Assembly (NCBI GenBank): GCA_011364905.1
Contig: RDNZ01000001.1
Coordinates: 54,025-118,024, forward strand
Direction: 5' to 3'
DNA length: 64,000 nt
Source: Candidatus Thorarchaeota archaeon
Lineage (GTDB): Archaea; Asgardarchaeota; Thorarchaeia; Thorarchaeales; Thorarchaeaceae
Positions 1 through 43,162 of the stretch are shown here, one piece after another. The notes beneath the pieces are model-generated. The model worked only from the letters and a program-made list of their open reading frames with translations, did not search any database and was not told where the DNA came from. The stretch's first letter is position 1, and each line of letters begins with the position of its first letter. Position numbers and translations under genes: made by a program.

Positions 1-3000
1 GTTCATTAATAGGAACAGAGTACAGCTCTGGTCCCAATATATCTGCGGGAGTAACATAGATTTCAATCTTTGCGGTTACAACTCGAGAGGTGTAGTTGGT
101 AAGATCAAATCGGACCACTAGATCATACAATCCTGGGTTCTCGACATTGATTGGTACATTAACCTCGTAAGATCCGTTTATATGTTGGATAACAACCAGA
201 TCTCCCCCTTCCCAACTGGCTAGCACATTGGCACCATAGATCAACGAGTTATGCTGAGTATCATTGTAGTAGAATAGAAATGATTTCGTGTCACCCCAAT
301 ATCCGCTCTGTAGGATTGGGACTGCAGTTGCTTGAGTTGGTATAGGTAAGATAGTGATGACTATAGACTTGTATGCCGTAGCGTATCCCATTTTGTCTGC
401 CGTCATCCGGAGGTATATGGATTGGCTCGCAAGTGAACTGACATCAATGAAAGCACTGTATGATCCATTTAGTAGATCAGTGAAGGTACCACTCAAACTA
501 CCCAATGTGTATGATACTGTAGCACCAGAAACAAGTGCTGCATGGAAAGTATCATTGTATACCGCCGTCAAGGACAATGAGTCGCCGAAAAAGACGTATC
601 GGATCGTAGTTCCGTCTGACGACGCAATTGTTGTTGGAATTGGGACGATACGTATGTCAATGTTGGTCTCTATGAACTGAACATTTGTGGTTACAGCTCT
701 GATTGTCAATGGGAAGACACCAACAGCGAATCCGGTAACATCTACCGATCCAGTGTACCAACCTGGGACACCAGTGGGCGTAAGGCCAGTTACTGTTCCA
801 TTCCATTCCATTGTCACACTCGCACCAGTGACGGGTAAGTCAGTGACTGTGCTTCTCAAGTATAGATCGAAATCGATTACATTGTCTATAACTGCGTCAT
901 AGGTTGACTGCAAAGGTACTATCTGACCAGGAGCTTTTGAAACCACGAGAGTGAATGATTTCTGTCTGGTTTGGTAAAACTCCCTTGATGCTGTAATCTG
1001 TGGATTGTAAATGCCAAAATCTGCATCTGACGTATCAAGCAGCAAGTAGTAAGAGCCGTCCCCAGCATCAACAAAGTCGTAGATTGTGCTAGCCCAAAGT
1101 AGGGTTGCATTGAATCCCTCTAGATAACTCAAGTAGAAGGGTTCTTGGACTCGGAAACTAATGTTTAGAACTTCTCCCCAATCTCCATAGTAAGTGGATT
1201 GAGTCAAGACAATTTGTACAAGTTGCGCACCAGGTTGTACCGCGACTTGCGCTTCAGCGACTTGATAGAAGTTCTTTGTGGCTGTCACGGTGATTGAATA
1301 TTGTTGAGCAACCAGTCCGGTAGTGTTCAAGGTGAGCGAATACAACCCATTGCCATTCTCAACCCATTGATATGCATTGCCAGTTATATCGGTCCAATCA
1401 CACTGTATTACTGCGCCTTCTAGAATCGTTCCGTGGTCCAAATCTTCTAGGGTAAGGGCTATGTTAATTGGAACTCCAACTGCTGTTGAACCAGCTGGTG
1501 GTGCCTCAGCAAGAAGCGATGTATGGACTGCTCTGACCAGTGCGGGAACATTCAATGCACTTCGGTCTGAATAGAATGGGGAACCAGTCCATGTTATTGT
1601 GATATTGAAGTACACAGTCCCTGGTGAGCTGAAAAGAGTTGTATTCAATGTTATTTGATAGACTCCGTTACCAAGACTGCTTACATGATAATCAGGCGAA
1701 GACCAACTACTACAGAATAATGTAACAGTTGCACCTTCGATTCCATCACCTGTGAGAAAATCAATGTATTCGAGGTTCATTGTGATATTGTCAAAGTATG
1801 GGGTTTCCTCCACAAGTGGAAATAGAATCACAGTTGAACGATAAGTCGTTGATGCTTGCGTAGTTGCAGTTCTATCAGCATAGAAGGGTGAACCTGATGT
1901 CCAATCTATACTTAGTTGAATAGCATGACTTGTTACCAAACTAAACGCATCTAGAATGGTTGAATTGAAACTAATCTCGTAGTATGTTCCGAAATTCACA
2001 AGAGTATAGTCACCGGATGCTATCACAGTCTGACTGACTCCATGGCTCAAGGTTATGTCACTCTTGTCAATTGTGATAAATGACTTATCTAAGAAGTCTT
2101 CAAACACAAACCTGAAGGATACATTCTCGAGGAATGGAGTGCTACCGGGAGTCTTCGTTATTCGAATTTGCGTCGGTCGTTCTATAATATTAGCAGACAG
2201 TGTTCGTCGCGATGATAGATAATAGGGCGCTCCTGAGAAGGATGTTGTTACATTGAGTTGAAATGTACCCGGTGGTCCGAGAGCCGCGGTGTCAATTTCA
2301 ACCAGATAATCGCCATTACCATTGTCTGTGATCCAATAGTCCACGCCCAAGGTCAAAGTGAGAGGATCGCTTGTCACCATGACTGATGCGCTAGTGATAC
2401 CGATACCTGAGCTATCATCGGTGAATGTAATGACAAATGTAATGTTTGACTGATATGGTGCATTGTCTGGACTCTCATAGCTCAACTGTGTTGACCTTTC
2501 TAGAACAGTGAAGGCGAAGTACTCGAAGTTGTCACTTACATAATTAGGTCCAGTGTATGCTATGCTTGCATTGATGTAGTGAACCCCAGGCGGACCAAAC
2601 GCTGAGGAGTTCAAGACTACAGTGAAGTGACCATCAGACACTGGTGTTACATGATAGAAAGCAGCACCAATGTTCAGAGTGAGAGTACCAGTCATTGCAG
2701 TCGTTGTTCCTGAGATTATGTCGGTGTAGACGAACTGAATGGTGACATTGTTACCCCATTGCGCCGGAGTAAATGGTAGGTGCGTCAACTGAGAACTTCT
2801 AAGCAAAACCATGACTAAGAATTGCTGGTTTTGTACGTCAGCATAGAATGGTGTGCCACTCCAAGTCAGGTTGAGGTGAAGTGCGACTTGACCCACGCCA
2901 CTTAGAGAGGAAGTATTGATGACTACTGTAAACTCATTAGTACCAGGATCAAAGGAGTAGGACCAATCAACTCCAGGCTCATTGATTTCGATATTCAATG

Positions 3001-6000
3001 ATGCAGAGTCTGCAATCCGTTCTGTTCGGATGGAATCAACGAATGAAAACACAAGACTTGCGTCCTCACCATAGGCAGTCGGTGAAACGGGTGAATAATC
3101 AATGTACGTGGGGCGTTCAAGAACCATAAGGAAAACACTGATTGTTTGATTCTCATATAGCGGGAGGACTCCGGCACTCCACAGAAAGCCGATATTCACT
3201 TGGAACAATCCTACACCTTCGAGATTTGTGCTGTTAAGATGGAACTCATAGAGTACAGTAGCTCCCTGATTAACGATTTCAATGTGGAAATCGTCTCCAG
3301 TAACTGGATTCACGCCAATGGGTGTGAAGGAAAGTGACACAGCGCCAGTTACGTTTGAGATGTAGGTTGAGTTGACCACATCATAGAACACAGCTGAGAA
3401 TGTGAAGTTGTCCAGATAGTACGTGGCAACGGGAGCTGTTTCTAAATACAAGTCGGTTTCTGTGCCTATCAATCTAAACGTAGTGTCAAGAGTTCGAGAT
3501 TGGAACTTTAGTACTGGTCCCGTCCAACTGATTTGGATAGAGATGTTTTTCCAACCGACAGTTGACCACTGTAAAGTTGGAACTGTGATATTATAATGAC
3601 CTGAACCCAGATCGCTCACAGAATAGACCAGTATGGGCAAATCAGAGGGCGTGACTAGAATATGAACATAGCCAGAGCTATTATCTATACCTAAGTTTAA
3701 GTCTGAGTCAAGATAGTTGACTAGAATATATGCATCAACTCCATGCGGAGTCTGAAGTATTGGATCCTCAAGCGTAAACAGAGTTGAATGTGATCTAACT
3801 TGTACACTTATTGAAATCGTATGATTCTGCATCTTTGTACCAGAGAAGCTCACAGAAACTGAGGATGTTCCTAGCGGAGTGGAATCAGTTGTGAATATAG
3901 TGAGTCTATACAGTCCTACCGAAATCTCATTGATACTATAAGTACCGGACCAATCGCAGAGGATTGAATTGTTTAGACCAGTGAGGGGTGTATTGTGGTC
4001 TGCATCAGTCCACTCGAAAGTCAATGAACCAGACTCGCCAACTGGAATTGCAACAACATTTTGCAGGTAGGTCACCTTTGTGTATAGTTCCCTGACTTCA
4101 ACATAGAGCAGATACCGCTGGGGTAGAATATATGGTGCACTTCCTGTGATCTCTACAACATATTCTCCCATTGCAACAAAGGTTGTATTGAGCCAGAACT
4201 TGTAGCTCCCTGGTGATCCTGCTACAGGCGTAACGCTATAGTAGCTAGACCAATTACAGTCGACAGTTCCCGAAACAATTCGTGAACCGAGATAGTCCTC
4301 AAATCCTATCGTGAAAGAGCTGTTATATCCAGAGGGGATTGATAGTCCTGGCGAAACGGGTGCTTCAAGCATCAAATTTGCATCGAAGTTGAGGTTTATT
4401 GTCAATACATCATGAACTGCATCGAAATAAGGATGAGTCCAGTCAAGATTCAGAGTGTACTGTCCTTTCTGAGGCAAGTCACCAGTATCAAGTGTAGCGA
4501 TGTACTCACCATTGCCAGCTGTTCCGAAATACTCTGTACCAGTGGTCCAGTTATAGCTCATCTGCCCATCTGAAACGGTCACTCCAGGAATATCAGTATC
4601 ATTGATTTGAATTCTAATGAGAAACAGATCAGGATAGGTCACATTTGTTGTCCAGGTTACAATGGCATCCTTTGGATTCAACAAGGTAGATTCGGATGCA
4701 TGTATAATACTGAATGAACGACGGAAGAATCCAGTCTTGTTCCATGCAGAGCCTGATAGACTGTTGGAGCAAAATGCCTGAACAATCCACTCTCCAGCAG
4801 ATGCATTGGCACCAAAGGTCAAGCTTCCAGAATTCGCATACCCAGTACTGTTTACTGTAGCCATCTCTGAGAACCAAGCTCCACCTGATGGTGAAAACAC
4901 GGTTATATTGACTTGGACTCCTGCGAATTGAGCGCCAATGTCTACTGCAAAGAAGGCCGTATCAGATGCCCTGAGGTTCATCGTCTGAGCTGTAGTGCCG
5001 CTTCCAATATTGGTCATCAGCAAATCAGTGATCATGTTTGCGCCTTTACTTTTAACAAGCCAATATCCCCACCGGTCTGCATAGGGATAGGCAGTAACAT
5101 TCGCAAACCAATCTGGACCATGTCCCTCATCCCATGAAGAGATGTTCACATTGGTTCGTAAGGGTGAGCCCACATAGTAAACATCCCGATTTTCAGGCAG
5201 AGAGATGTTGTAATAGTATCGATTATCATATCCCTCAGGAATGTCGGCGTAGAACCAAGTCAGGTACTCAACCAGTGAGGCATTCGTTGCCACAAAATTC
5301 TCTCCAAAGGATGTAGGGTCTTGAGTTGTAACCGTGGTTGATTCGCTTCTAGCATAGAGATTCGTTTCAACTGTAAATTCAACCCATATGTTTCTGTTCG
5401 GGACTGGTGTTGATGGTGTGGGTGTCCAAGAGAAGGTCACATCAACAGGACTTGTGGTCCAAACTGACGTAGGATTCTGTGTGACATTACCAAGTCCAGG
5501 TACAGACGAGCCGCCGCTGATGAAATCATTAACATCGAGCCCGTTCATTTGCATGTTGAGATCGCTTGGGTCGGCCTTGGTCTTTAGATATAGCTCGAAG
5601 TTGTCAACACGTGCGTAGGGATTAAGGTCGGGATTATAGTTCACAGTCTGCTGGCTGTAAAGACCTACTGTAACAAGTACGCCATCTGACAGGTCGAAAA
5701 TAGATAGGTCTGGGAGAGTAATCAATCCACTATCGTACCAAGTTTGGGCTTGATCAATATCAGGGAATGACTTTTGCCAAACACGCTGAGTGTAATCGTT
5801 CGTTTCAATTGAAACAAAGATAGCTACAAATCCATCTGCGCCCCAGTCAGAGTCAACCCAATAGTCCAGTCTAAAGCCTGCCCAAACAACGTCACCACGA
5901 TTCACAGAGAAGGTTTGCTGAGCCCAGGCTCTCTCCCCTTCAGATGGGTCTCCACCGCCTGCGATCTCAAACTGAACACAGTCATCTCCAGCACCATGTC

Positions 6001-6496
6001 CGTTGGCTAACCAGCTCGCCGATGGAGCTGCTCCTCCACCAATGCTCACCTGATTGAGAGACCAGCTAGATGGGCTGTTTTCCATATCGGGATCTTGGAC
6101 CCATGTTCGATTCTCTGTAAGGTCAGATATTCCGGTAAATAGCTCATAGCCTTCCCAGTCAGTACCCATAGGAATCGAAACGGACTCACTATTGGTACTA
6201 CTATTGCTTGAGAAGTATCTCATCTGATTGCTGGTGAAGGTATCGCTTCTATTTCCATACTCTTGTGCTGGCAATCCAGATGATGTACCAGACCACGTGG
6301 TCCAGCCTTGTTCAGCATTCAAATAGCCCGTTTCAGTAGGATTGGACATCGGAGAAGAGATTGTATCTTCCGGATTGGCCATACCATTGGTCGTTTTGCC
6401 GCTTTGTCCTTGTTGCAAACCAATATTCGCTGTAGCACTGAACACCATCAAGAATGTGATGAGTATCAATAGGGATAGTCTATATCTTGTGTTCAT
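1..6496 (-). CDS. Giant secreted Ig-like-repeat surface protein, 5' part only (at least 2165 codons; C-terminus lies beyond the window start). It is a paralog of the adjacent 2564-aa protein, with a signal peptide, a Laminin_G_3/ConA-like N-terminal domain and then repeated beta-sandwich modules rich in N-glycosylation sequons.
   Basis: The minus-strand frame with ATG at 6496..6494 stays open down to position 2; I hand-checked the first ~45 and last ~19 codons. The N-terminus reads MNTRYRLSLLILITFLMVFSATANIG, a signal peptide. The N-terminal region aligns with the N-terminus of the 2564-aa neighbour (RVDNFELYLKT versus RMDNVRIFIKT). It is missing from the ORF track only because it has no in-window stop. 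Confidence 0.75.
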   Translation of the reverse strand, partial: MNTRYRLSLLILITFLMVFSATANIGLQQGQSGKTTNGMANPEDTISSPMSNPTETGYLNAEQGWTTWSGTSSGLPAQEYGNRSDTFTSNQMRYFSSNSSTNSESVSIPMGTDWEGYELFTGISDLTENRTWVQDPDMENSPSSWSLNQVSIGGGAAPSASWLANGHGAGDDCVQFEIAGGGDPSEGERAWAQQTFSVNRGDVVWAGFRLDYWVDSDWGADGFVAIFVSIETNDYTQRVWQKSFPDIDQAQTWYDSGLITLPDLSIFDLSDGVLVTVGLYSQQTVNYNPDLNPYARVDNFELYLKTKADPSDLNMQMNGLDVNDFISGGSSVPGLGNVTQNPTSVWTTSPVDVTFSWTPTPSTPVPNRNIWVEFTVETNLYARSESTTVTTQDPTSFGENFVATNASLVEYLTWFYADIPEGYDNRYYYNISLPENRDVYYVGSPLRTNVNISSWDEGHGPDWFANVTAYPYADRWGYWLVKSKGANMITDLLMTNIGSGTTAQTMNLRASDTAFFAVDIGAQFAGVQVNITVFSPSGGAWFSEMATVNSTGYANSGSLTFGANASAGEWIVQAFCSNSLSGSAWNKTGFFRRSFSIIHASESTLLNPKDAIVTWTTNVTYPDLFLIRIQINDTDIPGVTVSDGQMSYNWTTGTEYFGTAGNGEYIATLDTGDLPQKGQYTLNLDWTHPYFDAVHDVLTINLNFDANLMLEAPVSPGLSIPSGYNSSFTIGFEDYLGSRIVSGTVDCNWSSYYSVTPVAGSPGSYKFWLNTTFVAMGEYVVEITGSAPYILPQRYLLYVEVRELYTKVTYLQNVVAIPVGESGSLTFEWTDADHNTPLTGLNNSILCDWSGTYSINEISVGLYRLTIFTTDSTPLGTSSVSVSFSGTKMQNHTISISVQVRSHSTLFTLEDPILQTPHGVDAYILVNYLDSDLNLGIDNSSGYVHILVTPSDLPILVYSVSDLGSGHYNITVPTLQWSTVGWKNISIQISWTGPVLKFQSRTLDTTFRLIGTETDLYLETAPVATYYLDNFTFSAVFYDVVNSTYISNVTGAVSLSFTPIGVNPVTGDDFHIEIVNQGATVLYEFHLNSTNLEGVGLFQVNIGFLWSAGVLPLYENQTISVFLMVLERPTYIDYSPVSPTAYGEDASLVFSFVDSIRTERIADSASLNIEINEPGVDWSYSFDPGTNEFTVVINTSSLSGVGQVALHLNLTWSGTPFYADVQNQQFLVMVLLRSSQLTHLPFTPAQWGNNVTIQFVYTDIISGTTTAMTGTLTLNIGAAFYHVTPVSDGHFTVVLNSSAFGPPGVHYINASIAYTGPNYVSDNFEYFAFTVLERSTQLSYESPDNAPYQSNITFVITFTDDSSGIGITSASVMVTSDPLTLTLGVDYWITDNGNGDYLVEIDTAALGPPGTFQLNVTTSFSGAPYYLSSRRTLSANIIERPTQIRITKTPGSTPFLENVSFRFVFEDFLDKSFITIDKSDITLSHGVSQTVIASGDYTLVNFGTYYEISFNSTILDAFSLVTSHAIQLSIDWTSGSPFYADRTATTQASTTYRSTVILFPLVEETPYFDNITMNLEYIDFLTGDGIEGATVTLFCSSWSSPDYHVSSLGNGVYQITLNTTLFSSPGTVYFNITITWTGSPFYSDRSALNVPALVRAVHTSLLAEAPPAGSTAVGVPINIALTLEDLDHGTILEGAVIQCDWTDITGNAYQWVENGNGLYSLTLNTTGLVAQQYSITVTATKNFYQVAEAQVAVQPGAQLVQIVLTQSTYYGDWGEVLNISFRVQEPFYLSYLEGFNATLLWASTIYDFVDAGDGSYYLLLDTSDADFGIYNPQITASREFYQTRQKSFTLVVSKAPGQIVPLQSTYDAVIDNVIDFDLYLRSTVTDLPVTGASVTMEWNGTVTGLTPTGVPGWYTGSVDVTGFAVGVFPLTIRAVTTNVQFIETNIDIRIVPIPTTIASSDGTTIRYVFFGDSLSLTAVYNDTFHAALVSGATVSYTLGSLSGTFTDLLNGSYSAFIDVSSLASQSIYLRMTADKMGYATAYKSIVITILPIPTQATAVPILQSGYWGDTKSFLFYYNDTQHNSLIYGANVLASWEGGDLVVIQHINGSYEVNVPINVENPGLYDLVVRFDLTNYTSRVVTAKIEIYVTPADILGPELYSVPINE

Positions 6497-9400
6497 TCTT
6501 CCATCCCTCCAATCTCTTTTAGCAATGCATCTATTTCAGCCTTAGACAGGTTTCGGGCTTGTTCTATCATGAGATCAGCCTCTGTTTCTTCAATGCCCAT
6601 TTTCAATAGACGCTCTTTCAAGTGAAGTAGTTCATCTTCTGAAAGACGCTCCTCAGCAACTTCAGCAGGGACTCCTTCCTCAGCAACCATCTCAGCTTCC
6701 GCAAGTTCTCTCGCCCGACGTGCACGCTCCTGTTTGAGAACCTCATTGATGAATCCAGCTCTCTCACTTGGCCGCATCTTGTCAAGGTCTTGACGTAGAG
6801 TATCAATGTCATCAGGAGTCAAACCGACAACAGTGGCAAGCTGATCTAGAAGCAGTTCGACATCCATTACTGTGACATCAACTGTTGACAGCGCCACATC
6901 TTCCTCTGTCTTCTGGATTCTAATTGGCTTCAAATCATCATTCATCATTGCGAGAAGCATTTGGCGTCTCTGAGGAACATCAGCAGGTTTCGGTATTTTG
7001 CCTTTTGACAGAGACCCTATCATTCTCCTAATGATTCGTAGCAGCTTTGGCACAGATAACACTCTGAAGTATAGTGCGCCTAAGGCAGCGAATAATACAA
7101 GAAGCATTGTGCCATTTCGGAACCATGCGACAAGTGCCTCTTGCTCAGGTGAGAAGCGAGTATAAACGTCAAGATTGACCTCTCCATCTGCATAGTTAAC
7201 CCTGCTTAGAATGATTTTCAAGCTGTAGAGGGCTAACACGGGAGCACGAAATGCGATTGCATATGTTCCATTGTGGTAGTCGATATCAAGTTCTTCCACA
7301 TGAACCAAATTTGCTGTTTGCACATTGTTGCTTGATCGGATTGTAATATCAGCATCCGTGATTGGTAAAGAGTGATCACTGTCGAGATATGTGACATTTA
7401 CGAAGAAGACACGACCGACATAGATAAATTCGGGCAAAGCAGAAGATACTAGCTCCGTCGCAATCCTGCGTATTTTCAAGGAAACATCAATCTCTCCTCT
7501 CGAGTAGTTTCCTCGAGATATGAAAATCCTGATTGTATAATTCTCGTCGCGATATTGTAGTGTTTGACCTAGATTCGCCTCCGTTGGACCGAAGACGTAT
7601 GATCCGTTATTCAAATTGGTTAATTGAACGGCACCAAACTCCCAATATGCAGTAGCAAGACCGTCAGCTATCCAGTTTGCATGAAGGTCATCCCAATAAC
7701 CAAATGTCATCGAGTAATCATCACCTACAGCAAACTCTGCTTCCGTTTTTCCGGTTAGCACGGTCCGAATTGGATTGACAAGCAGTTTCACCAATCCTGA
7801 AGCAAACCGAAAGTTCTCCTTTCGGAAGGAGATGGCTATGTTATGGGGAACAGTTCCTGCCTGAACAAGAGAAGTGTTAACCGTAAGTGAGTATGTACCA
7901 TTGCCATAATCGAATAGCGAACCCTTGAACTGCTCTAATGTGTAGTTAGTAATCGCACCCGGTATTCCCTCGTCAGCATGGATATCATGGAAGACAAGAA
8001 CAAATGTGACTTCCTCCCCATAATATCCACTAAGAGTGGCGTCAGTCACAATAACAATATCAGTATCGACAACTTCAACATTCAAAGTGAATTGGATTGA
8101 TGAAGGCCTATAACCGTCCTTGTCACTCGAGATTATAACAGTCCATTCTTGGACACTAAGATCTGTGGTGTCAATAAGAGCACTGTAATACCCAGGCGTA
8201 CCTAATTCGGTTAAATTCCCGACAAGCGGCCCTACACCATATGAGAGACGGGCACCGAGAACAGGTGTGTTTAGATCTGTATTATTCAGATAAACAGTGA
8301 TATTGGCAATATCACGGAAGTTCACAGTAACGACAAAATCTGAAACAGCTACAAGACTAGTGGAAAGCTCAGTGATTTCAATTGTAAGTTGCATTGATAC
8401 ACTCTTGTAGTTGTCCGAGCTAGCTTGAATGAGAATCTGATGGGTACCTACAGAGGCTCCTGTAACAATAAAGTCCACAACGTATTTTCCATCCGATGCA
8501 GACCACGGAATCTGTCCAGAACCTCCAACCCAACTATAGGTGACCTGACCATTCGTAATTGGTGAGCTGTCAGAGTATATGAGATAATCCACTTGGAGAT
8601 GGACACTCAATCCGTTGACGGTCGAAAGAGGATTGATCGATCCGGCAATTTTTGATGCAATCTTGCCAATTCGAATTTGGAAATCTCTTTGCCTGCTCTC
8701 ATAATTGAGGAGGACGGATCTCACTGTGACTGTGTGTTCACCAGCGACTATCTGCCAAGATTGCACGGTAACATTGTATATACCAGATCCAATATGAGTC
8801 ATGTCGACTGTTATAGTTGAAATAGTCAGATTGACATATGCGCCAACAATGGGAGCTCCAGTTCTAGCATCTGTAACATTGGCTTGGAAATTAATAGAGT
8901 CGCCCCAGGAGGGACTAGTAGGATTAAAGTCTAGCTCAATCTGAACTGGTACAGCTGAAAGGAGAATATCCGCGAGAATTGTATGATTTTGGTGCAAATA
9001 CTTTGAGGCACTTACTGAGAATGAATACAAACCAGCATCCATTCCAGATGTTTGAATCGTCATTTCATAGACGCCGGTGTCAATTTCATGAATTGTTGCT
9101 ATTGTTGGGTAAGTAGCGTTCCAATCACTCAAAACCGTCGCGCCTGGAATACCAACTCCAAATTCAATTGCAGTGTAGGTGATGTTGGCGTGGATTACAT
9201 CTCCCAAGTAGTATGTTACACCTTGAGGCAGGGTGAAGCTAAGAGTCGTTGATACAGAATTAACAACCGCTGAAAAGCTTAGATTTGTTACATTTGTGTA
9301 ATATGGAGAACCATACCAAGTCATATTGGCTGTGAAGAAATACCTGCCCAAACCAGACAATGTTGTGGTGTCTACCAGAATCTGATAAGTGCCATCACCA

Positions 9401-12400
9401 TTGTCAATGATCCAATGCGTGAAACTTGTGGAATTTGCTGACTCTAATGAAACATCTGCCCCGGGGATTCCATTCCCGGTGAGATAGTCCTTGAAGTCAA
9501 GCAAGGCGCTGATATTGAAAAAGTAATACGCTGGTGGAGTTGATAGGACTGAGGCTTGAGTATACCGAGTGGAAATTGTGACTTGAGTGGTTGTCGTGGA
9601 ATTCTCATAATATGGCGTCATGTCGCCCCAGTGGAATTGAATAGTAATTGGGTACGCATCTTCTAGCTCTGAGGATAGAAGTGTAGAATTGAAGGATATC
9701 AAATAGAATCCATCTTGTCCAGTGAGTGTATACTGAGAGTCGAGGATTACTGTGCCTCCTCCATGTGTGATGGTAAGAACAGATTTTGTCAGAGATATTC
9801 TAGTGCTATTCACATCATCCATAACGCTAATCTGGAATTCTACATTGCTCAGGAACGGAGTCGTTAAAGGCGAACGGGTCACCGACAGCGTTGCGTATCG
9901 TCTCACCACATCTATTTGGACATTCGTTATCCTACTCTGATAATATGGTGCGCCTGTTTTGCTTGCTGAGATTGCAATGGTATATTCACCAAAGTTTCCT
10001 AAGGCAAGTGTTGAAATCCTGATGCGATAGTCGCCACCTGTTAGTGAATCAACCCAGTAGTTGACTCCGAGCTGAAGTGTAGCGTTGGAACAGGTCGCAG
10101 TAATGGTTGCGCCATCTATACCCGCGAGTGTGCTATCGTCAAAATAGGACACAAACACTTCAGCTTCCTCCAAGTAGACTGCAAGAGAGGGGACTTCGCT
10201 AGTTAGTTGAGTCCTTCTTTGGATAAGCGTTAGATAGAAGAAGTCAGTGGCATCAAAACAGAAGTTTGTGCCTGTGTAAGACATCGATGCATTGACCGTA
10301 TAGGTTGCCAGTGATGGAAATGCGCTTGTATCAAGAGTCACTGTGAAAGTGCCATCTCCATTGTTTACAACGTTATAGTATCCTAGTAGAGACGCATCTA
10401 GTGTCAAGCTTCCAGTGTTCAACAAGGACTGATCGTCAAGGTCTCTGTAAGTAAAGACGATAACCAAATCATTACCATATTGAATTGAGGTGTATGGTCC
10501 ATGTTCAAGATTCGTGTATCTACTCCGCACGGTCAGTGATATCGGAATGCTGGTTCGGTTCTGGTAGAATGGGGTACCAGTCCACATCACATCGAGATGA
10601 AGTGTGAAGGTTCCAACGTTGCTCCACCATGTTGTATCAAGCTCCAATACATACTCTTGACTACCCGGTAGATAGATAGCGCTAAGAACAAGTCCGGTCT
10701 CCTGAACCTGATAATTCAATTGAGGATCATCGGAAATCGGCAGGCCTGTTAGAACATCGATGTAGGAGAAAGTCAGATTGACATTATCTCCATATGGAGT
10801 GGTTGGGAGAGGTTCCCATAGAATGCTTGTTTGCCTGTATCTGGTATTCACTGCTACGGTCAGTGATCTGTTTTCGTAGAGCGGAAGCTGTCCAGATGTC
10901 CAATTTGCAGAGATTCGAATCTCACATGTAATGATACCGCTAAGATAATTTGTATCGAAGGTTATTTGATATTCTCCATTACCTAGTTCGGAGATCACCA
11001 TCAGGTCTTGGGTTAATGTCTGACCTGGTGTAAGGACTTCAATATAGAAGTGCACATTCAAGGGATAGTCTCCAGTACTATTGGTTATCCCAGTACTGTT
11101 ACTAATGTCCCAATATACAACCGAGAAGGTGACATTTTCCCCATAAGGAGTGGCAACTGGATTCGTTCCTATGTACAAATCAGATGGACTTCCAGCGATT
11201 CTTGCGCTTACCTGCAGCACTTTGTTATCGTGCGCTGGTTGTGGACCAGTCCAATTTGCATAGAGTGTTATATCCTTCCTGCCAATCGACCCCCATTGAT
11301 CAGCTCTTATTCTAACTATGTACTGACCAGCTATTGAACCATTTACAACTGTATACTCAAGTGACGGTACACCCACGGCTTCAGCATAAATCAAGACATT
11401 GCTGCTGACAATTCCTTGTGATGTTGTAATGTCATAATACATCACGTAAATCGTAATTTGACCAGTGTAAGGCGTTGGTTCGATGGGATTATCTAAGGAG
11501 AAAGAAGTCAAATGAGTGATTATATCAATACCAATGCTGAAGGTATGGTTCTGGTAGGCAAAGCGGTTAACATCGAAGACCACGGAGTAGTCCTGAATAG
11601 GATCAGATTCAGCTGAGTAAAACGTTATGCTGTATTCACCTGGTGCACTGGCTGCCACAATGTAACTTGACCAGTTGCATGAGATGGAACTCTCTGCACC
11701 CGATATCGGAAGATCGTGATCAGTATCCCAGTATGTCAGTGTAATGGTTTCTTCATAACCAACTGGGAGAGATATGCCGCTCTGGGAAACTGAAACTGAA
11801 GTGAAGATCTGTCGCACTTCAACAAATAGAAGAACCTGAGAAGTAGTGTAGTAATTCTGCTCTGCTGTGACGACAACCGCATAGGTGCCCAAGTTGGAAT
11901 TTCCTGTAGTAATCGTAAGAGTGTAGTTACCAGGTGCTCCAGCTACTGGATTGACGGTGTAGGATGAATCTGTCCAATTACATGTTAGAACTGCACCACC
12001 AATACCCGCGTCTTCCGAGTCTGCGTAGAAGAGTTCGAGAACTGCATTGTCTCCTCGGGGCACTTGTACCCCAGGAGCACTACTGGATTGTAATGTTGTT
12101 TCTTCAACGACATTTATCACAAAATACGTTTGGAGTGAATCGTAGTACTGCTTACTCCATGAAATGCCTATCACATATCGACCAGGGAGTCCCAAATCTG
12201 CTGTGTTGACAACAACACTGTACTCACCAGTACCCATATCATTCAGGATGCGTGTTCCAGTAGTCCAGTTGTATGTTGCAGAACCTCCTGGAAGGAGAAG
12301 ACCATTATTGGAGTCATTTACACCAATCTGAAGAAGCATATCTTGACCATAGGTGAGATTTCGTTCCCAGGAAGTAACAGATTGCCTGGGATAGGCAATA

Positions 12401-14187
12401 TACATGTCAGATCCATGTTCAATTGTAAACGACCGTGAATACAAACCGATGTTCTCAACGGGACTACCTGAAACAGAATCATTCACGAATGCTTGTACCG
12501 ACCATTGCCCTACTTCAGCTGTGAAGGCATCAAGATTCAAGTCGGTCGTTTCAGCAATCCCTGAAGACACCGTTGCTGCCACTGTGTCCCATAGGTTGCC
12601 CATTGTGTCATAGACGTTGAATGTAACAGTCGCACCGTTGTAAACGGTATCAAGATAGGCTTGGAAGCGAACATTGTCATTAGCCCGATACGTGTTTGTA
12701 GTGACCCAACTGGCACCACTTGACATTCTCAAGTCTTGAATTATGTTCGCTGAATGCCCTGTTATTTTCCAGAATCCATTCTGATAGGTCCCGACAACTC
12801 CATCATAAACTGAAATGTTCAAGCTTGTTGCAGTGGTGGACCAATATGGGAAATTGACGGATGGGAATCGAGGTTCTGATACAGTATCAATAACCAGAGT
12901 ATCAGATTTACTTGCATTGAAGTAGAATAACTGGGAATAACCGTTTGGGACAGCAACGTAATAATATGTAATCCAGTTTACTTGGCTGGCATTACTGGTC
13001 GTGAAGTGAGTGCCCAGACTCTGAACATCAGCTTCATAGAGTGAGGACTGGTCAACTTTTCTTGCATATACCGTCATGTCGACAGAAAAAGTGACACGAA
13101 TATCATCATTAGGGTTGGGATTTACTGGAGTCGGAGTCCAGCTGAATGTTGCATTCACTGCACTTCCACTCCATGGGATAGCTGCAGATTCCTGAACTGT
13201 GCCTAAACTCCATGTAGCGCCATTGGACACGGGAATGCCATTCATTTCCAAGTTTACTTGACTTGGTTGCACTCGAGTCTTTATGAAGATTCTAACATTG
13301 TCCATCCTCACCTCTGGGTAGAGCTGAGGATTGCTTCCGAATGATCTTGTAGTCCTCATTCCAATTTGCAGAATGAAGTTGGATGATGTGATGAGTGAAG
13401 GGTCAGCCTCGATTAAGCCTGTGGAGTACCAAGTTGTTTGTGCAAGAACATCACTGAACTGCATGTCCCACAGATGGTTTGATACATTATCATTGTGGCC
13501 AATTTGAGCGTATAGCTCCCAAAAACCAATGGGCAGACCGCCCCAATTATCATCAACCCAGTAATCAAGTGAAACGCCAACCCATGTGACTTCACCACGA
13601 TTGGTATTGATTGTTTGCTCCGCATACTGTCTATCGCCAAGGTCATGGCGGTAGTAGCCTCCATCCAACACACCGTCCATCTGAAAGCTGACATACCCAC
13701 CAGTTATTGTAGAAGACATAGGATTTGTGTGAGTTGGCAAATCATCATAGCCAGTTGTCCAGTCCGCTGCTGAACCAAAACCGGGGTTGGTAAGATAGGT
13801 TCGATTCTCCTGAAGGTCACTCACACTGATGGATGTGTCAGTACCTTCCCAAAGAGGACCGAGAGGAACAGAAACAGTCTGAGTTGTGGTAGTATTTGTA
13901 GGATAATAAGCAAGGTCCAGGTTTGAGTGGTGATCCGTCCTTTGCCCATATTCCGACACTACCATAGGAGACCCTTCGCCTGAAACTGTTGTTGGGACCT
14001 CAGAAAGAGAATAAGAATTCAGGACCTCATCTGGCCCAACTTCAACGGTCTGACCATTGCCTAGATCTACCTGTTTTGCTCCAGGCGCAGAGGAAGTTGG
14101 GGTGGCATTATGAGTCATAGGGGCTCCAAGACTCACAAGTAGAGACGCCATCACGAGAAATAGAAACAGGGTCCTTTTGACTTTCAT
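6493..14187 (-). CDS. Giant 2564-aa surface protein: signal peptide, Laminin_G_3-like lectin domain, then more than 20 Ig-like/beta-sandwich repeats with many N-x-S/T sequons, a single C-terminal TM helix, and a roughly 200-aa acidic coiled-coil cytoplasmic tail.
   Basis: Single uninterrupted 7.7-kb ORF. The N-terminus MKVKRTLFLFLVMASLLVSLGAP is a signal peptide. The motif RMDNVRIFIKT matches the Laminin_G_3 C-terminal consensus. Repeats of about 100-120 aa carry recurring Y/W/G/D positions. The TM helix is MLLVLFAALGALYFRVL (about nt 7050-7115), followed by a tail ERARRARELAEAEMVAEE...KEIGGMEE. An SD GGAGG sits 8 nt upstream of the ATG at 14196..14200. Confidence 0.85.
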   Translation of the reverse strand: MKVKRTLFLFLVMASLLVSLGAPMTHNATPTSSAPGAKQVDLGNGQTVEVGPDEVLNSYSLSEVPTTVSGEGSPMVVSEYGQRTDHHSNLDLAYYPTNTTTTQTVSVPLGPLWEGTDTSISVSDLQENRTYLTNPGFGSAADWTTGYDDLPTHTNPMSSTITGGYVSFQMDGVLDGGYYRHDLGDRQYAEQTINTNRGEVTWVGVSLDYWVDDNWGGLPIGFWELYAQIGHNDNVSNHLWDMQFSDVLAQTTWYSTGLIEADPSLITSSNFILQIGMRTTRSFGSNPQLYPEVRMDNVRIFIKTRVQPSQVNLEMNGIPVSNGATWSLGTVQESAAIPWSGSAVNATFSWTPTPVNPNPNDDIRVTFSVDMTVYARKVDQSSLYEADVQSLGTHFTTSNASQVNWITYYYVAVPNGYSQLFYFNASKSDTLVIDTVSEPRFPSVNFPYWSTTATSLNISVYDGVVGTYQNGFWKITGHSANIIQDLRMSSGASWVTTNTYRANDNVRFQAYLDTVYNGATVTFNVYDTMGNLWDTVAATVSSGIAETTDLNLDAFTAEVGQWSVQAFVNDSVSGSPVENIGLYSRSFTIEHGSDMYIAYPRQSVTSWERNLTYGQDMLLQIGVNDSNNGLLLPGGSATYNWTTGTRILNDMGTGEYSVVVNTADLGLPGRYVIGISWSKQYYDSLQTYFVINVVEETTLQSSSAPGVQVPRGDNAVLELFYADSEDAGIGGAVLTCNWTDSSYTVNPVAGAPGNYTLTITTGNSNLGTYAVVVTAEQNYYTTSQVLLFVEVRQIFTSVSVSQSGISLPVGYEETITLTYWDTDHDLPISGAESSISCNWSSYIVAASAPGEYSITFYSAESDPIQDYSVVFDVNRFAYQNHTFSIGIDIITHLTSFSLDNPIEPTPYTGQITIYVMYYDITTSQGIVSSNVLIYAEAVGVPSLEYTVVNGSIAGQYIVRIRADQWGSIGRKDITLYANWTGPQPAHDNKVLQVSARIAGSPSDLYIGTNPVATPYGENVTFSVVYWDISNSTGITNSTGDYPLNVHFYIEVLTPGQTLTQDLMVISELGNGEYQITFDTNYLSGIITCEIRISANWTSGQLPLYENRSLTVAVNTRYRQTSILWEPLPTTPYGDNVNLTFSYIDVLTGLPISDDPQLNYQVQETGLVLSAIYLPGSQEYVLELDTTWWSNVGTFTLHLDVMWTGTPFYQNRTSIPISLTVRSRYTNLEHGPYTSIQYGNDLVIVFTYRDLDDQSLLNTGSLTLDASLLGYYNVVNNGDGTFTVTLDTSAFPSLATYTVNASMSYTGTNFCFDATDFFYLTLIQRRTQLTSEVPSLAVYLEEAEVFVSYFDDSTLAGIDGATITATCSNATLQLGVNYWVDSLTGGDYRIRISTLALGNFGEYTIAISASKTGAPYYQSRITNVQIDVVRRYATLSVTRSPLTTPFLSNVEFQISVMDDVNSTRISLTKSVLTITHGGGTVILDSQYTLTGQDGFYLISFNSTLLSSELEDAYPITIQFHWGDMTPYYENSTTTTQVTISTRYTQASVLSTPPAYYFFNISALLDFKDYLTGNGIPGADVSLESANSTSFTHWIIDNGDGTYQILVDTTTLSGLGRYFFTANMTWYGSPYYTNVTNLSFSAVVNSVSTTLSFTLPQGVTYYLGDVIHANITYTAIEFGVGIPGATVLSDWNATYPTIATIHEIDTGVYEMTIQTSGMDAGLYSFSVSASKYLHQNHTILADILLSAVPVQIELDFNPTSPSWGDSINFQANVTDARTGAPIVGAYVNLTISTITVDMTHIGSGIYNVTVQSWQIVAGEHTVTVRSVLLNYESRQRDFQIRIGKIASKIAGSINPLSTVNGLSVHLQVDYLIYSDSSPITNGQVTYSWVGGSGQIPWSASDGKYVVDFIVTGASVGTHQILIQASSDNYKSVSMQLTIEITELSTSLVAVSDFVVTVNFRDIANITVYLNNTDLNTPVLGARLSYGVGPLVGNLTELGTPGYYSALIDTTDLSVQEWTVIISSDKDGYRPSSIQFTLNVEVVDTDIVIVTDATLSGYYGEEVTFVLVFHDIHADEGIPGAITNYTLEQFKGSLFDYGNGTYSLTVNTSLVQAGTVPHNIAISFRKENFRFASGLVKLLVNPIRTVLTGKTEAEFAVGDDYSMTFGYWDDLHANWIADGLATAYWEFGAVQLTNLNNGSYVFGPTEANLGQTLQYRDENYTIRIFISRGNYSRGEIDVSLKIRRIATELVSSALPEFIYVGRVFFVNVTYLDSDHSLPITDADITIRSSNNVQTANLVHVEELDIDYHNGTYAIAFRAPVLALYSLKIILSRVNYADGEVNLDVYTRFSPEQEALVAWFRNGTMLLVLFAALGALYFRVLSVPKLLRIIRRMIGSLSKGKIPKPADVPQRRQMLLAMMNDDLKPIRIQKTEEDVALSTVDVTVMDVELLLDQLATVVGLTPDDIDTLRQDLDKMRPSERAGFINEVLKQERARRARELAEAEMVAEEGVPAEVAEERLSEDELLHLKERLLKMGIEETEADLMIEQARNLSKAEIDALLKEIGGMEE

Positions 14188-14425
14188 ATTGAGGCCTCCT
14201 CACTAGGCACGAATACTACCAAATCGACTGGCTGATTGACTAATGATTTACCTCTATATGAATAGATGCGTTATAGTGTGAGTCATAGAAATCGAAAGGA
14301 TTGTCGATTTTTCGAAAACAAGTAAGATATGCCTATGACTTGTTTCAGATTCTCAATATTCAATAAGAATTCATGTCAAGGCAACAACTTCAGCCAAATG
14401 AGCCATTTTCTGAAACTAAATACGA

Positions 14426-19035: not shown

Positions 19036-20181
19036 TCATAAGTAGGCTTTCTCAACTTGGTTGTAGAGATAGTGCTTCATGCTATTTGATGCCACTACAG
19101 GTAGGTGTTCGTGTACGCTATCCAACGAGGCTACTTCCTGCGTTTTTAGTGAAAATCCCAACTTTTCGAAACTACCCTTGACCTGCTCTATAGCGTTTCC
19201 GAAATGTCTTATGCCTATCCCTAATGCTTCTAGGATTTTGTAGCCATAGTGCGTGAGCCAGAGAGAGTTCATTAGCGACGTGCTACCCTTTGTAGGGACA
19301 ATTGCATTTTCGATCTCTCTTTTCCGCGCTTCTGCAATTCGTGCAATTAGCCTTGATGCCCTAGTGTTCCTCATCAACTCTGTATCGAGGAAAAGAGTTG
19401 GTCCTCCATGCTCAATCTGTGCATCAAGTAGATCTATCGCTTTGTCAAAAATGGCTCGCTTTGCGGTTCTGTAGTCCATTGACTCCGTTGTGCTTTCAAG
19501 GAGGTTTTTTGGATTGCCATCAAATCCAGCCAATTCTTCCATACCAAAACCCAACATGAGACCTCTTTGAATGGCATACCAATCATTGTTCGATACCTGA
19601 CTCAAGACGGAGAGAATCCTCTGACGGAGGGGTGCCCAATCCATTTTATTTGCGAGGGCATCACAGGATTTCCACATCAGAACTGGTTGCGCAGTCCATG
19701 GAGCTCCATCAGGCCTGACAAGTAAGAGACGCTCTGCCAGTTGGCTTGTTGTGAAGAGGAATCTCAAGATGCTGTCAGAGTAGATCACAACAGATGAGTC
19801 GAGCAATATGTGCGAACGAACAAGTATCGGAGTTATATCCAACTCCTTGAGCCTGTTCTGCGTGAGGTTAAGTCTCTTCAATGCATCACAATCTCCCAGT
19901 GGCCAGAGATTCAGTGACTCTAAATGGTTGTTCTCGACACGCAAATCTATCAGTGTCTTTTGATTCCGTAGTGGCGTTAAATCAAGTTCCTCAAGCATGT
20001 TATTAGATAGGTTGAGGGTCATTAGTTGGCTGCATTCTCTAAGATTCGAGAGATCAACTTTTATGGCCGCTCTCGTCGTCAAATCTACAATCTTGTCATC
20101 TTGCCTATACTTGGTTTCTTCTTGACGTCCGTGTGGACTCCAGTACTTTATTGCGACCTCTTCCATGCAGAACTCAACCAT
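19036..20181 (-). CDS. Cytoplasmic leucine-rich-repeat (LRR) protein with an uncharacterised roughly 250-aa C-terminal domain.
   Basis: Four or five tandem LxxLxLxxNxL units (LSNLRECSQLMTLNLSNNMLEELDLTPL; LIDLRVENNHLESLNLWPL; LKRLNLTQNRLKELDITPI). There is no signal peptide or TM helix. Confidence 0.65.
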   Translation of the reverse strand: MVEFCMEEVAIKYWSPHGRQEETKYRQDDKIVDLTTRAAIKVDLSNLRECSQLMTLNLSNNMLEELDLTPLRNQKTLIDLRVENNHLESLNLWPLGDCDALKRLNLTQNRLKELDITPILVRSHILLDSSVVIYSDSILRFLFTTSQLAERLLLVRPDGAPWTAQPVLMWKSCDALANKMDWAPLRQRILSVLSQVSNNDWYAIQRGLMLGFGMEELAGFDGNPKNLLESTTESMDYRTAKRAIFDKAIDLLDAQIEHGGPTLFLDTELMRNTRASRLIARIAEARKREIENAIVPTKGSTSLMNSLWLTHYGYKILEALGIGIRHFGNAIEQVKGSFEKLGFSLKTQEVASLDSVHEHLPVVASNSMKHYLYNQVEKAYL

Positions 20182-29953: not shown

Positions 29954-30131
29954 ATCACGGGCTCCCCTCAACAACCTCCACTAGTAATAATGAGTAGGTT
30001 CGATATCAATCTAATTCTAGAACATCTAATGAGTCTTGATGAAGCTTTATTCTGGCAACAAAAAGTCAACACTTAAAACTAGGTCTTTTCGGGCTGACAT
30101 CCAATATACACAGTATCTCGAGGAGTACGTT

Positions 30132-43037: not shown

Positions 43038-43162
43038 GAAACTCCAATCTCCTGACGTAAACGCATACCTACCACCATTTAGATTTAATGGTGGCTTTCC
43101 GCCAAATCTGGGGTTTTGCTCCACCTACATCTTTATTAACAAATGCACTATTGTTAATAATT

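Follow-up and report, generated by a model that had tools for sequence, protein, structure and literature searches.

Two very long open reading frames, named A and B here, lie one behind the other on the minus strand at one edge of a 64-kb window (the whole stretch of DNA analysed, from a Thorarchaeota (Asgard) archaeon), and gene B is cut by the window edge. They raise the question of what kind of proteins these are and whether the two act together. An earlier note on this DNA had described them as two giant paralogous surface proteins of about 250 kDa each. The description holds, as ORF A encodes 2564 aa and ORF B has 2165 open codons before leaving the window, and these two overlapping genes encode paralogous membrane-anchored proteins of ~280 kDa each. 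The mass had been set too low, the values calculated before glycosylation being 282 and 281 kDa. Both proteins have a common plan, consisting of a lectin-like head, 17 Ig-like repeats, one transmembrane (TM) helix and a conserved, predicted cytoplasmic tail. The features identified in the window are listed in Table 1.

Table 1. Position of the features of genes A and B in the 64-kb window
Feature	Position	Strand	Description
Gene B	1..6496	-	First 2165 of about 2559 codons; open frame; paralog of A, cut by the window edge
B repeat array, in-window part	2..4636	-	aa 621-2165; repeats 1-15 complete and first residues of the 16th
B head region	4697..6301	-	About aa 66-600; homologous to the A head; BLASTP collinear from aa 66
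B putative signal peptide	6413..6496	-	About aa 1-28: MNTRYRLSLLILITFLMVFSATANIGLQ; hydropathy segment aa 5-28
A/B junction	6493..6510	-	GGAGG 6510..6506; 9-nt spacer; ATGA 6496..6493
Gene A	6493..14187	-	Complete, 2564 aa, type-I membrane protein, 282 kDa, pI 4.4; from ORF list and translation
Gene A stop TGA	6495..6493	-	
A cytoplasmic tail (predicted)	6496..7047	-	aa 2381-2564
A TM helix	7048..7113	-	aa 2359-2380; hydropathy
A repeat array	7159..12351	-	aa 613-2343; 17 tandem Ig-like beta-sandwich repeats
A head domains 2-3	12418..13203	-	About aa 329-590; two non-repeat beta-sandwich domains
A head domain 1	13273..13989	-	About aa 67-305; beta-jelly-roll, lectin/CBM-like
A putative signal peptide	14113..14187	-	About aa 1-25: MKVKRTLFLFLVMASLLVSLGAPMT; hydropathy segment aa 6-25 after K/R
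SD-like GAGGAGG 5' of the ATG of A	14192..14199	-	Sequence read: …gtgaggaggcctcaatATG

Anatomy of the two proteins

As had been stated before, gene B leaves the window as an open frame. None of its 2165 codons is interrupted by a frameshift or stop, and it is likewise intact in a 97%-identical contig (L001), where its counterpart (L001:17692-25371; 96.7% aa identity) reaches 2559 aa. The earlier note had also asked whether B ends like A. In L001 it does, with one TM helix followed by a charged helical tail of ~180 aa that is homologous to the tail of A. Orthologs of B (P0039-P0045) are 2572-2594 aa long, and those of A in Thorarchaeota MAGs are 45-97% identical. Comparison with L001 gave dN/dS values of 0.086 for A and 0.093 for B, evidencing purifying selection on both genes; the lowest value within A (0.046) was that of its tail.

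A and B are collinear paralogs with 32% identity over 2129 aa in BLASTP. The homology previously claimed for their N-terminal domains was found on alignment, and the similarity runs along the whole length of the proteins. The heads of A and B have diverged to 35% identity, and a joint alignment has 51 invariant columns. A repeat HMM recognized 17 repeats in A and 17 in the full-length L001 ortholog of B (aa 621-2340), instead of the "dozens" that had been reported. Matches span about 78-107 aa on the 88-position profile, with about 97-117 aa from one repeat start to the next. Each repeat of A is closest to the repeat at the same position of B (31% identity on average, vs. 20% with other repeats); the array is therefore older than the duplication, after which both copies were retained. 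The repeats are tandem beta-sandwiches of seven to nine strands and about 90-100 aa, that is, of Ig-like fold, and resemble in fold the Ig-like domains of invasin, intimin, FdeC, filamin and S-layer proteins. The AF2 models of protein segments had pLDDT of 85 and 81.5. No Pfam model of the Big_x or filamin type matched above threshold, the sub-threshold scores being 13.4 bits for Big_6, 12.6 for Filamin and 16.3 for CarboxypepD_reg.

The head, of ~550 aa, is composed of one lectin/CBM-like jelly roll and two beta-sandwiches. The jelly roll (about 135-190 residues) is superposable on CBM4/61/70, the Eph ligand-binding domain and MAM, its closest folds, and the best Foldseek matches of the head were the EphA2 ectodomain, the EphA7 ligand-binding domain and the MAM-Ig region of RPTPmu. 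Its earlier identification as a Laminin_G_3/ConA-like domain could not be sustained. Laminin_G_3 (PF13385; gathering score 27.6 bits) was absent from the full proteins at E<=1, and no Pfam match at E<=10 was obtained with the ~330 N-terminal aa of either protein. The Pfam search itself works, since a neighbouring 1188-aa ORF matches Laminin_G_3 with 30.1 bits. In addition, a distant relative (P0046) carries Laminin_G_3 at aa 1-149 (7.6e-25), and hhalign did not align the head profile to this domain but only its last beta-sandwich, to aa 736-786. Assignment of A, B, their heads or their tails to any Pfam or NCBIfam family was rejected, as no match was significant.

Both N-termini show a basic n-region and then about 20 hydrophobic aa, in agreement with the signal peptides proposed in the earlier note, for which hydropathy was the only criterion; all the B-type N-termini of 44 species have a K/R start and then a hydrophobic run. 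A and B are acidic, Thr/Ser-rich and Cys-poor (only 5-6 Cys residues in each). The richness in N-x-S/T sequons that had been pointed out amounts to about twofold over composition shuffles (54 vs. 28.1 +/- 4.6 in A; 49 vs. 26.4 +/- 4.3 in B). Sequon positions are 76% conserved among A orthologs, and 15 sequons are invariant. The ectodomain (aa 26-2358) has 52 sequons and the tail 1, and both chains are presumably N-glycosylated. The 25 aa after the TM helix contain 7 K/R in A, and 7-8 across the pair, which agrees with the positive-inside rule. The TM helix of A sits in one long helix predicted by AF2 (aa 2347-2394; model residues 198-245).

The tail of A comprises, in this order, a basic juxtamembrane helix, an IPKP motif, a helical PSERAGF core, an acidic linker and a C-terminal three-helix module finishing in GGxEE. 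It is the best-conserved region of the protein (0.67 between A proteins and 0.39 between A and B, vs. 0.55 and 0.31 for the repeats), and A-type and B-type tails are distinct yet conserved over the whole clade. Its AF2 model was moderate overall (pLDDT 45-83), with 65-83 in the helices. Sequence and profile searches found no homolog of the tail in Pfam, PDB or NCBIfam; in PDB, neither the tail sequence nor the profiles of the tail and of the whole protein matched anything significantly. The tail profile matched only 126 clusters (50% identity) among 1.84 billion, lying at the C-terminus wherever the matching protein was long or complete. The tail was found at the C-termini of giant proteins only, and every example with a source name or title is labelled as Thorarchaeota or another Asgard. 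A word-based search with the tail by itself yielded only fragments of the same family (short contigs and broken gene calls), and no stand-alone tail protein was present among the tail matches inspected. Because of an MG[IF]…LL pattern, a UBA-like nature of the C-terminal module was considered, and this candidate was rejected: a profile of the last ~50 aa gave only matches of E>=0.01 to unrelated PDB chains, and Pfam yielded no UBA, only sub-threshold generic three-helix matches (RecX_HTH1, Bap31_C). The TM-plus-tail module is new, and neither this module nor the 17-repeat architecture has a name in current databases.

Conservation of the gene pair and its surroundings

At the junction, the ATG of B overlaps the TGA of A in an ATGA, and a GGAGG lies within the last codons of A, 9 nt 5' of this ATG. 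Both the stop/start overlap and the internal SD can be read in the sequence as the earlier note had indicated. The codons of a Gly-Gly conserved at the C-terminus of A-type proteins supply the GGAGG, and the SD-like GAGGAGG of A itself closes a 238-nt intergenic region. Because B starts on the stop of A with its SD inside the last codons of A, ribosomes ending A can re-initiate on B.

The same junction was seen in L001-L004. Furthermore, all the species-level loci with enough downstream sequence (44/44) have, behind the A-type gene, a long ORF that overlaps its end, starts like a signal peptide and is open for at least 109 codons within the locus; a GGAGG-like motif is present in all of them. 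The overlap is -4 in 42 of them and -1 in the other 2, the order is always A and then B, and no B-type gene with an overlapping follower appeared in this survey. A stop/start overlap with an SD in the upstream ORF, kept across all these relatives, is what characterizes a translationally coupled pair; its conservation in 44/44 loci strengthens the case for co-expression of A and B and, since each of the related species examined has retained both genes, joint action of the two is probable. From the junction we infer that A and B are translationally coupled in vivo, and the "stoichiometric co-translation" (1:1) formerly proposed is plausible in view of the gene overlap. Four-nt ATGA overlaps are frequent in prokaryotic operons and a complex need not follow from them. 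Only one other -4 overlap exists in the window (about 22 same-strand neighbours), and it joins an ABC ATPase with its permease, a known obligate complex.

Homologs with a named source belong to Thorarchaeota or Promethearchaeota, except one Helarchaeota protein, and no Heimdallarchaeia-labelled match was obtained in the homolog and tail searches. At least 11 contigs carry an A-type and a B-type tail on one strand, separated by about 7.7 kb, and one MAG contig carries A-B-A-B. Larger proteins (3100-5543 aa) with the same tail also exist. Among more distant Asgard giant genes, a 5543-aa first gene with the tail is followed in one locus (L087) by a second giant gene overlapping it by 4 nt; in another (L006), the second gene of a 4-nt-overlapping giant pair has neither C-terminal TM helix nor tail. 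One larger pair with the tail was observed beside a Ras-family GTPase gene and about 5 kb away from a cluster of ESCRT genes.

Upstream of the pair are genes for a 747-aa membrane protein with a metzincin motif, a CoA ligase, an LRR protein and a LamG protein; downstream, L001-L004 have a class-I tRNA synthetase or an LPG synthase. The neighbours recurring in relatives 46-97% identical are the CoA ligase, a PALP enzyme, the class-I tRNA synthetase, the LPG synthase and PHP, in an order and orientation that vary among relatives.

Proposed role and alternative explanations

With moderate confidence, we propose that A and B form a co-expressed, probably heteromeric and N-glycosylated surface fibre or adhesin whose tail docks a cytoplasmic partner. 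The N-terminal signal peptide would export each chain, and the ~550-aa head would be displayed outside the cell on the rod of 17 Ig-like domains. An Ig-like domain measures roughly 4 nm, and an extended rod of 17 would be about 70-80 nm. The single C-terminal TM helix would hold the chain in the membrane with the ~180-aa, mostly helical and acidic tail in the cytoplasm. Re-initiation on B after A would supply the two chains in about equal quantity, and they could then pair into a heteromer, A and B probably building one long cell-surface fibre together. The heads of this fibre might bind glycans, particles or neighbouring cells while the tails would dock the partner. Heteromer formation, the adhesive or ligand-binding function and the tail partner are our interpretation of sequences and models. 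Cultured Lokiarchaeia have no ordered S-layer, and long "complex surface proteins" protrude from their single membrane (PMC9834061). If this picture, borrowed from Lokiarchaeia, also applies to the uncultured Thorarchaeota, the A/B family would be a concrete candidate in these archaea for long surface proteins like those imaged. A strongly conserved cytoplasmic domain is less usual in a prokaryotic surface fibre and, if the tails bind cytoplasmic partners, an outside-in link across the archaeal membrane would result. A bolder proposal, in which we place little confidence, is that A-B is a heterodimeric transmembrane adhesion receptor, the lectin-like heads touching cells or particles tens of nm out and the Asgard-restricted tails recruiting cytoskeleton, small GTPases or ESCRT. 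It is compatible with the strong constraint on the tail, its lack of known homologs, its confinement to giant Asgard proteins and the ESCRT and GTPase genes near a larger pair. If true, prokaryotes related to the eukaryotic ancestor would have a functional counterpart of integrin- or cadherin-type receptors. No known prokaryotes are closer relatives of eukaryotes than the Asgard archaea, and contact between cell and partner is central to eukaryogenesis models.

Several other explanations were considered. A and B could be independent paralogs without physical association, the overlap reflecting operon compaction and each protein acting alone, for instance as a homo-oligomeric adhesin. We regard this as rather unlikely. 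It would agree with the abundance of ATGA overlaps in prokaryotes, with different specificities of heads that are only 35% identical, and with the A-B-A-B contig, where the unit has been duplicated as happens with ordinary adhesin genes. However, what was copied there is the whole pair and not a single gene, the two genes occur together and in the same order in each of the 44 species loci, their tails remain of two distinct types clade-wide, and the giants of L087 and L006 are overlapping pairs too. Also unlikely, and to a somewhat greater degree, is a two-component S-layer or envelope canopy with A and B as its main lattice-forming proteins, as in SlaA/SlaB or Haloferax csg, although the genes are adjacent and presumably co-expressed and their composition is like that of archaeal S-layer glycoproteins. 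An ordered S-layer is the less likely version because each subunit is anchored by a TM helix of its own and has a cytoplasmic tail of ~180 aa that is conserved. Besides, there is no PGF-CTERM-type terminus, a rod of 17 Ig domains suits an adhesin or fibre and not a lattice tile, the structural matches to S-layer proteins reflect the shared Ig-like fold only, and the one Asgard envelope imaged is without an ordered S-layer (PMC9834061).

Tandem giant gene pairs were noted in two Thorarchaeota MAGs by Wu et al. (2022), and aloposons are marked, according to that work, by integration at a tRNA gene that follows the giants and by four conserved upstream genes that include a MinD/ParA-like ATPase (PMC8813620). 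The giants studied here are tandem and mutually homologous as well, and could be cargo of an aloposon-like mobile element like Otus/Ephialtes of Heimdallarchaeum, an origin that is very improbable. ARAGORN found 0 tRNA genes in the 64-kb window and hence no tRNA integration site, the Rfam scan of the window was empty, and no MinD/ParA, integrase or transposase was present among the ORFs scanned with Pfam. Moreover, several housekeeping genes recur beside the pair in its relatives, and the dN/dS, about 0.09, is compatible with a gene that has long resided in the chromosome. All these results largely refute the mobile-element reading, and the locus is chromosomal. The least probable explanation is a membrane-anchored protease trap of the alpha-2-macroglobulin/TEP type. 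The CxEQ thioester motif is absent from A and B (regex C.EQ), which refutes a thioester mechanism; the few Cys residues and the generic beta-sandwich fold of MG domains also argue against the trap, and there was no Pfam match to A2M, thioester or receptor-binding domains.

Comparison with known systems

Bacterial Ig-repeat adhesins, such as invasin, intimin and FdeC with their Big_1 domains and the LapA-type extender adhesins, are held by an outer-membrane beta-barrel or a T1SS retention module, whereas A and B have a C-terminal TM helix plus a cytoplasmic tail, and their repeats match no Pfam Big_x model above threshold. Also unlike the bacterial giant adhesins, they are archaeal and encoded as an obligate pair of paralogs. 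Haloferax csg and Sulfolobus SlaA/SlaB have no sequence homology to A/B. In SlaA/SlaB, only SlaB is anchored, and this plan of one anchored stalk and one unanchored canopy differs from that of A and full-length B, both with TM helix and tail. We know of no cytoplasmic domain in SlaB or csg comparable to the large conserved one of A and B. PGF-CTERM/archaeosortase substrates have the TM helix in the last ~25 residues and then a short basic tail; in A, 184 residues follow the TM helix.

What A and B share with Otus/Ephialtes, as these are described, is that giant Asgard genes homologous to each other stand in tandem. Nevertheless, the A/B proteins, of 2.56 kaa, are smaller than those giants of 3-6 kaa, and their locus, as described above, differs from an aloposon. 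The text passages and figure legends of PMC8813620 make no mention of a TM-plus-tail module or a 17-repeat anatomy, and its supplements give no identifiers for the Thorarchaeota tandem giants.

Finally, A and B have the layout of Eph receptors, RPTPmu (MAM-Ig-FN3), cadherins and integrin alpha/beta, namely an N-terminal jelly-roll for ligand binding, tandem beta-sandwiches, and one TM helix leading to a cytoplasmic tail that is conserved. This is an analogy only, as A and B have no detectable sequence homology with these eukaryotic receptors and contain no kinase, phosphatase or catenin-binding region. The fold likeness stays at the level of a generic jelly-roll (TM-score about 0.5) and the resemblance is one of architecture, not evidence of descent. 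Within this analogy, the pairing of A and B as two chains would parallel that of the integrins.

Two overlapping giant genes and their conservation

Reading of the open frames and of the junction bore out two consecutive giant minus-strand genes, A and its paralog B, with an ATGA stop/start overlap and an embedded GGAGG, as an earlier note had described from the sequence (junction, A end into B start: …attGGAGGgatggaagaATGAacaca…). The GGAGG is separated from the ATG of B by a spacer of 9 nt, and A is preceded by a GAGGAGG and an intergenic region of 238 nt. Frames that stay open for 6.5 and 7.7 kb cannot be due to chance in DNA with a GC content of 44%. In contig L001, which is 97% identical to the window, A is likewise followed through an ATGA overlap by B, here 2559 aa long and 96.7% identical to that of the window across the 2165 shared residues. 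Its continuation comprises a TM helix (about aa 2352–2378) and a charged tail of about 180 aa alignable with that of A, so that the truncated gene does end as A does, a point which the earlier note had left to be checked. The dN/dS values against the 97%-identical contig were 0.086 (A) and 0.093 (B); on sequence evidence, both are real genes under purifying selection.

The two N-termini are alike, with a basic start and then a hydrophobic stretch of about 20 residues, and the calculated masses are 282 kDa (A) and 281 kDa (B), with a pI of about 4.4. The products aligned collinearly over 2129 residues with 32% identity (BLASTP) and are therefore paralogous along their whole length, beyond the N-terminal domain for which homology had been claimed.

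The search with A returned 55 proteins, and those with source-given names were Candidatus Thorarchaeota or Promethearchaeota except for one Helarchaeota protein. A-type orthologs showed 45–97% identity and lengths of 2552–2631 aa, or more in a subgroup with an additional six-bladed NHL beta-propeller (Pfam NHL, SGL, TEN_NHL), whose members still have the tail and are followed by an overlapping B. A B-type group was 31–33% identical to A (2572–2594 aa), and the homolog P0040 was 42% identical to B. Contigs with an A of 97, 56, 50 and 47% identity repeat the order A-then-B with stop/start overlap, and have ATGA, ATGA, GTGA and TAATG, respectively, at the junction.

A scan of genomes for the tail, one per species, gave 125 loci, and the A-type tail was found in 47 of the 80 listed; 44 of these 47 had enough downstream sequence for judging the junction. 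Each of the 44 had a second long ORF that begins like a signal peptide and overlaps the stop of A (−4 in 42, −1 in 2), and a GGAGG-like motif, encoded by the conserved C-terminal Gly-Gly of A-type proteins, lay 8–12 nt upstream of the second ORF. B-type proteins end in G-I/L instead of Gly-Gly, and no overlapping ORF followed a B-type gene in the species-level loci listed. From the conservation of overlap and motif we infer, on good grounds, that A and B would be translationally coupled and synthesised at roughly 1:1. Within the window, just one other −4 overlap was found among about 22 same-strand neighbours, that between the genes for an ABC ATPase and its permease. At least 11 contigs have an A-type and a B-type tail on one strand at a distance of about 7.7 kb, and the Thorarchaeota MAG contig JBHIAE010000022.1 showed the order A-B-A-B (loci L049, L066, L040 and L058). 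Its four tail matches follow one another at about 7.7–8.1 kb; the whole pair has thus undergone tandem duplication.

Coordinates of the genes and loci discussed (window numbering unless another contig is named)
Feature	Position	Strand	Description
ORF A	6493..14187	-	complete, 2564 codons (ORF list and translation)
ORF B frame	6496 down to window edge	-	open throughout, 2165 codons
A/B junction	ATGA 6496..6493; GGAGG 6510..6506	-	sequence read
Cys of repeats 2 and 3 in A	~11677..11982	-	aa 736 and 837 (B: aa 747 and 847)
747-aa ORF	14426..16669	-	directly upstream of A; N-terminal signal/anchor, C-terminal TM helix with short basic tail
381-aa ORF	19036..20181	-	leucine-rich-repeat protein
1188-aa ORF	20228..23794	-	Laminin_G_3 match (6.2e-7, aa 140-280); N-terminal anchor, TM helix aa 929-958
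528-aa ORF	28388..29974	-	hydrophobic N-terminal segment, C-terminal TM helix and short basic tail
294-aa ORF	42240..43124	-	as the 528-aa ORF; Big_7 Ig domain
ABC ATPase (263 aa)/12-TM permease (546 aa)	52370..54798; overlap 54007..54010	-	4-nt stop/start overlap
352-aa ORF	56096..57154	-	as the 528-aa ORF
NHL subgroup (P0031-P0036)	L004, 10001..18670		A-type, 46-47% identity, 2873-2894 aa; junction TAATG
L087	1..36632		ENA ERZ23486231 scaffold_11
L006	1..23182		JGI 3300033156; P0051 named Candidatus Helarchaeota

Architecture of the proteins

By profile self-comparison, the stretch between about aa 613 and 2343 is strongly repetitive, with offsets in multiples of about 100 columns. Rather than the dozens of repeats previously supposed, an iterated repeat HMM identified exactly 17 in A (aa 613–2343) and exactly 17 in full-length B (aa 621–2340). 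On average, a repeat of A shared 31% identity with the repeat of B at the same position and only 20% with others, and since position-matched repeats are the closest, the 17-repeat array predates the duplication that gave A and B, and no homogenisation has followed. Both proteins are very poor in cysteine (5–6 Cys); a near-invariant Cys in a C-N/D-W motif of repeat 2 and another in repeat 3, present in both paralogs and conserved in at least 90% of A- and B-type orthologs, may form an inter-domain or inter-chain disulfide.

Sequons numbered 54 in A (28 ± 4.6 in shuffles) and 49 in that portion of B which the window covers (26 ± 4.3). Of those in A, the ectodomain has 52 and the tail 1, and across 14 A-type orthologs sequon positions were conserved 76% on average, 15 being invariant. 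The first 25 residues past each TM helix hold 7–8 K/R and 1 D/E, which by the positive-inside rule places the tail in the cytoplasm.

This tail is the best-conserved region, with mean identities of 0.67 among A-type proteins and 0.39 between A and B (repeats, 0.55 and 0.31; head, 0.53 and 0.35) and the lowest dN/dS of the protein (0.046). Searches of Pfam, NCBIfam and PDB sequences gave nothing significant for it, and its profile matched only 126 proteins among 1.84 billion cluster representatives. The match was C-terminal in every long or complete protein, the complete ones reaching 5543 aa; the short matches inspected were fragments of giant proteins. The few among the 126 with source-given names were Thorarchaeota. 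Titles of the 80 listed loci were nearly all Thorarchaeota, the remainder being 'Promethearchaeota', one 'Hermodarchaeota' or unclassified 'uncultured archaeon'. The final 50 or so residues form a three-helix module conserved across the superfamily (LSxxEIEELRxxLxKxGxPxxEIDxIxEQAxxLxRxLVxELLxSL). A UBA-like domain was considered for them and rejected, as profile searches gave no support. The 381-aa leucine-rich-repeat protein has neither a signal peptide nor a TM helix, and L001, L002 and L003 also encode it a few genes upstream of the pair; as a cytoplasmic protein encoded near two proteins with conserved tails on that side of the membrane, it makes a candidate partner for these tails.

The head (aa 40–612) was modelled as three all-beta domains (AF2, 18 sequences, pLDDT 85). 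Confident Foldseek matches were the Eph receptor ligand-binding domain, MAM-Ig of RPTPmu, CBM61/4/27, the Wzt carbohydrate-binding domain and the sugar-binding domain of GH2 enzymes. The head had no sequence match to Laminin_G_3, nor did its profile align with the bona fide LamG domain that P0046, a distant relative, carries. Therefore, of the Laminin_G_3/ConA-like domain proposed earlier, 'ConA-like' survives only in the sense of a lectin/CBM-like jelly roll. The 1188-aa ORF, which does match Laminin_G_3, may be the source of that idea. Its C-terminal 230 or so residues are unrelated to the A/B tail, and close relatives also have a large ORF in this slot (1166 aa in L001), though L002 does not.

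Genomic surroundings and other Asgard pairs

Recurrent neighbours of the pair in relatives are, on one side, genes for a CoA ligase, the leucine-rich-repeat protein, a PALP enzyme and PPDK and, on the other, genes for a class-I tRNA synthetase, LPG synthase and a PHP protein; their order and orientation vary. The 747-aa ORF had no Pfam or NCBIfam match and carries HETMHAIGFAH, a match to the metzincin zinc-protease motif HExxHxxGxxH; the giant proteins might be shed or matured by it. Homologs occupy the same slot in L001 (747 aa), L003 (51% identity) and L004 (45%), and none was clearly present in L002. The 528-, 352- and 294-aa ORFs have 4–12 sequons, and the window is rich in predicted C-terminally anchored surface proteins.

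Pairs with 4-nt overlaps were also found among other Asgard giant genes. In L087, the gene for a 5543-aa protein with the tail precedes one of at least 4004 aa; the former combines the same tail module with Laminin_G_3, DUF2341 and polysaccharide-lyase matches. The pair adjoins a Ras-family GTPase gene, and an ESCRT cluster (Snf7, AAA ATPase, ESCRT-II, EAP30) is situated about 5 kb upstream of the pair. The Helarchaeota pair of L006 encodes proteins of 3570 aa or more and of 4393 aa, with an identity to A of 23–24% across about 63% of its length. The second (P0051) lacks a C-terminal TM helix or tail, and an Arf/Ras/Roc GTPase gene is nearby.

Possible function and comparison with known systems

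These findings are consistent with A and B being co-expressed type-I membrane glycoproteins, in each of which a lectin-like head, a long rod of Ig domains and a conserved cytoplasmic tail are combined. On the most parsimonious mechanism, which we consider somewhat probable, A and B would assemble into a heteromeric fibre or adhesin at the cell surface, and their tails would engage a cytoplasmic partner. That they are independent paralogs without physical contact seems unlikely. An S-layer-like canopy is more doubtful still: both chains are anchored and tailed, no PGF-CTERM is present and their shape is a rod. An alpha-2-macroglobulin-like trap is essentially excluded, there being no CxEQ in A or B, and the same holds for aloposon cargo. 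The aloposons of Heimdallarchaeum that Wu et al. (2022; PMC8813620) described have tandem genes for 3000–6000 aa, tRNA integration and an upstream MinD/ParA. The 64-kb window contains no tRNA or Rfam match, nor was a ParA or integrase found among the ORFs scanned, and by these features the present locus does not qualify as a mobile element.

Giant Ig-repeat surface proteins are ordinary, overlapping gene pairs likewise, and tandem giant genes of Thorarchaeota are already on record in print. The literature searched gave no description of the strict A/B pairing across the clade, of the 17-repeat anatomy or of the orphan, highly constrained TM-plus-cytoplasmic-tail module. The new element is, above all, this tail module, common to a superfamily of 2.5–5.5-kaa proteins that is Asgard wherever taxonomy is given. 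As to the heteromeric fibre, a role as an integrin- or cadherin-like outside-in adhesion receptor of an Asgard archaeon is a long shot. In cultured Lokiarchaeia there is no ordered S-layer and 'complex surface proteins' protrude from the single membrane (PMC9834061), and it is these proteins that an A/B fibre would match.
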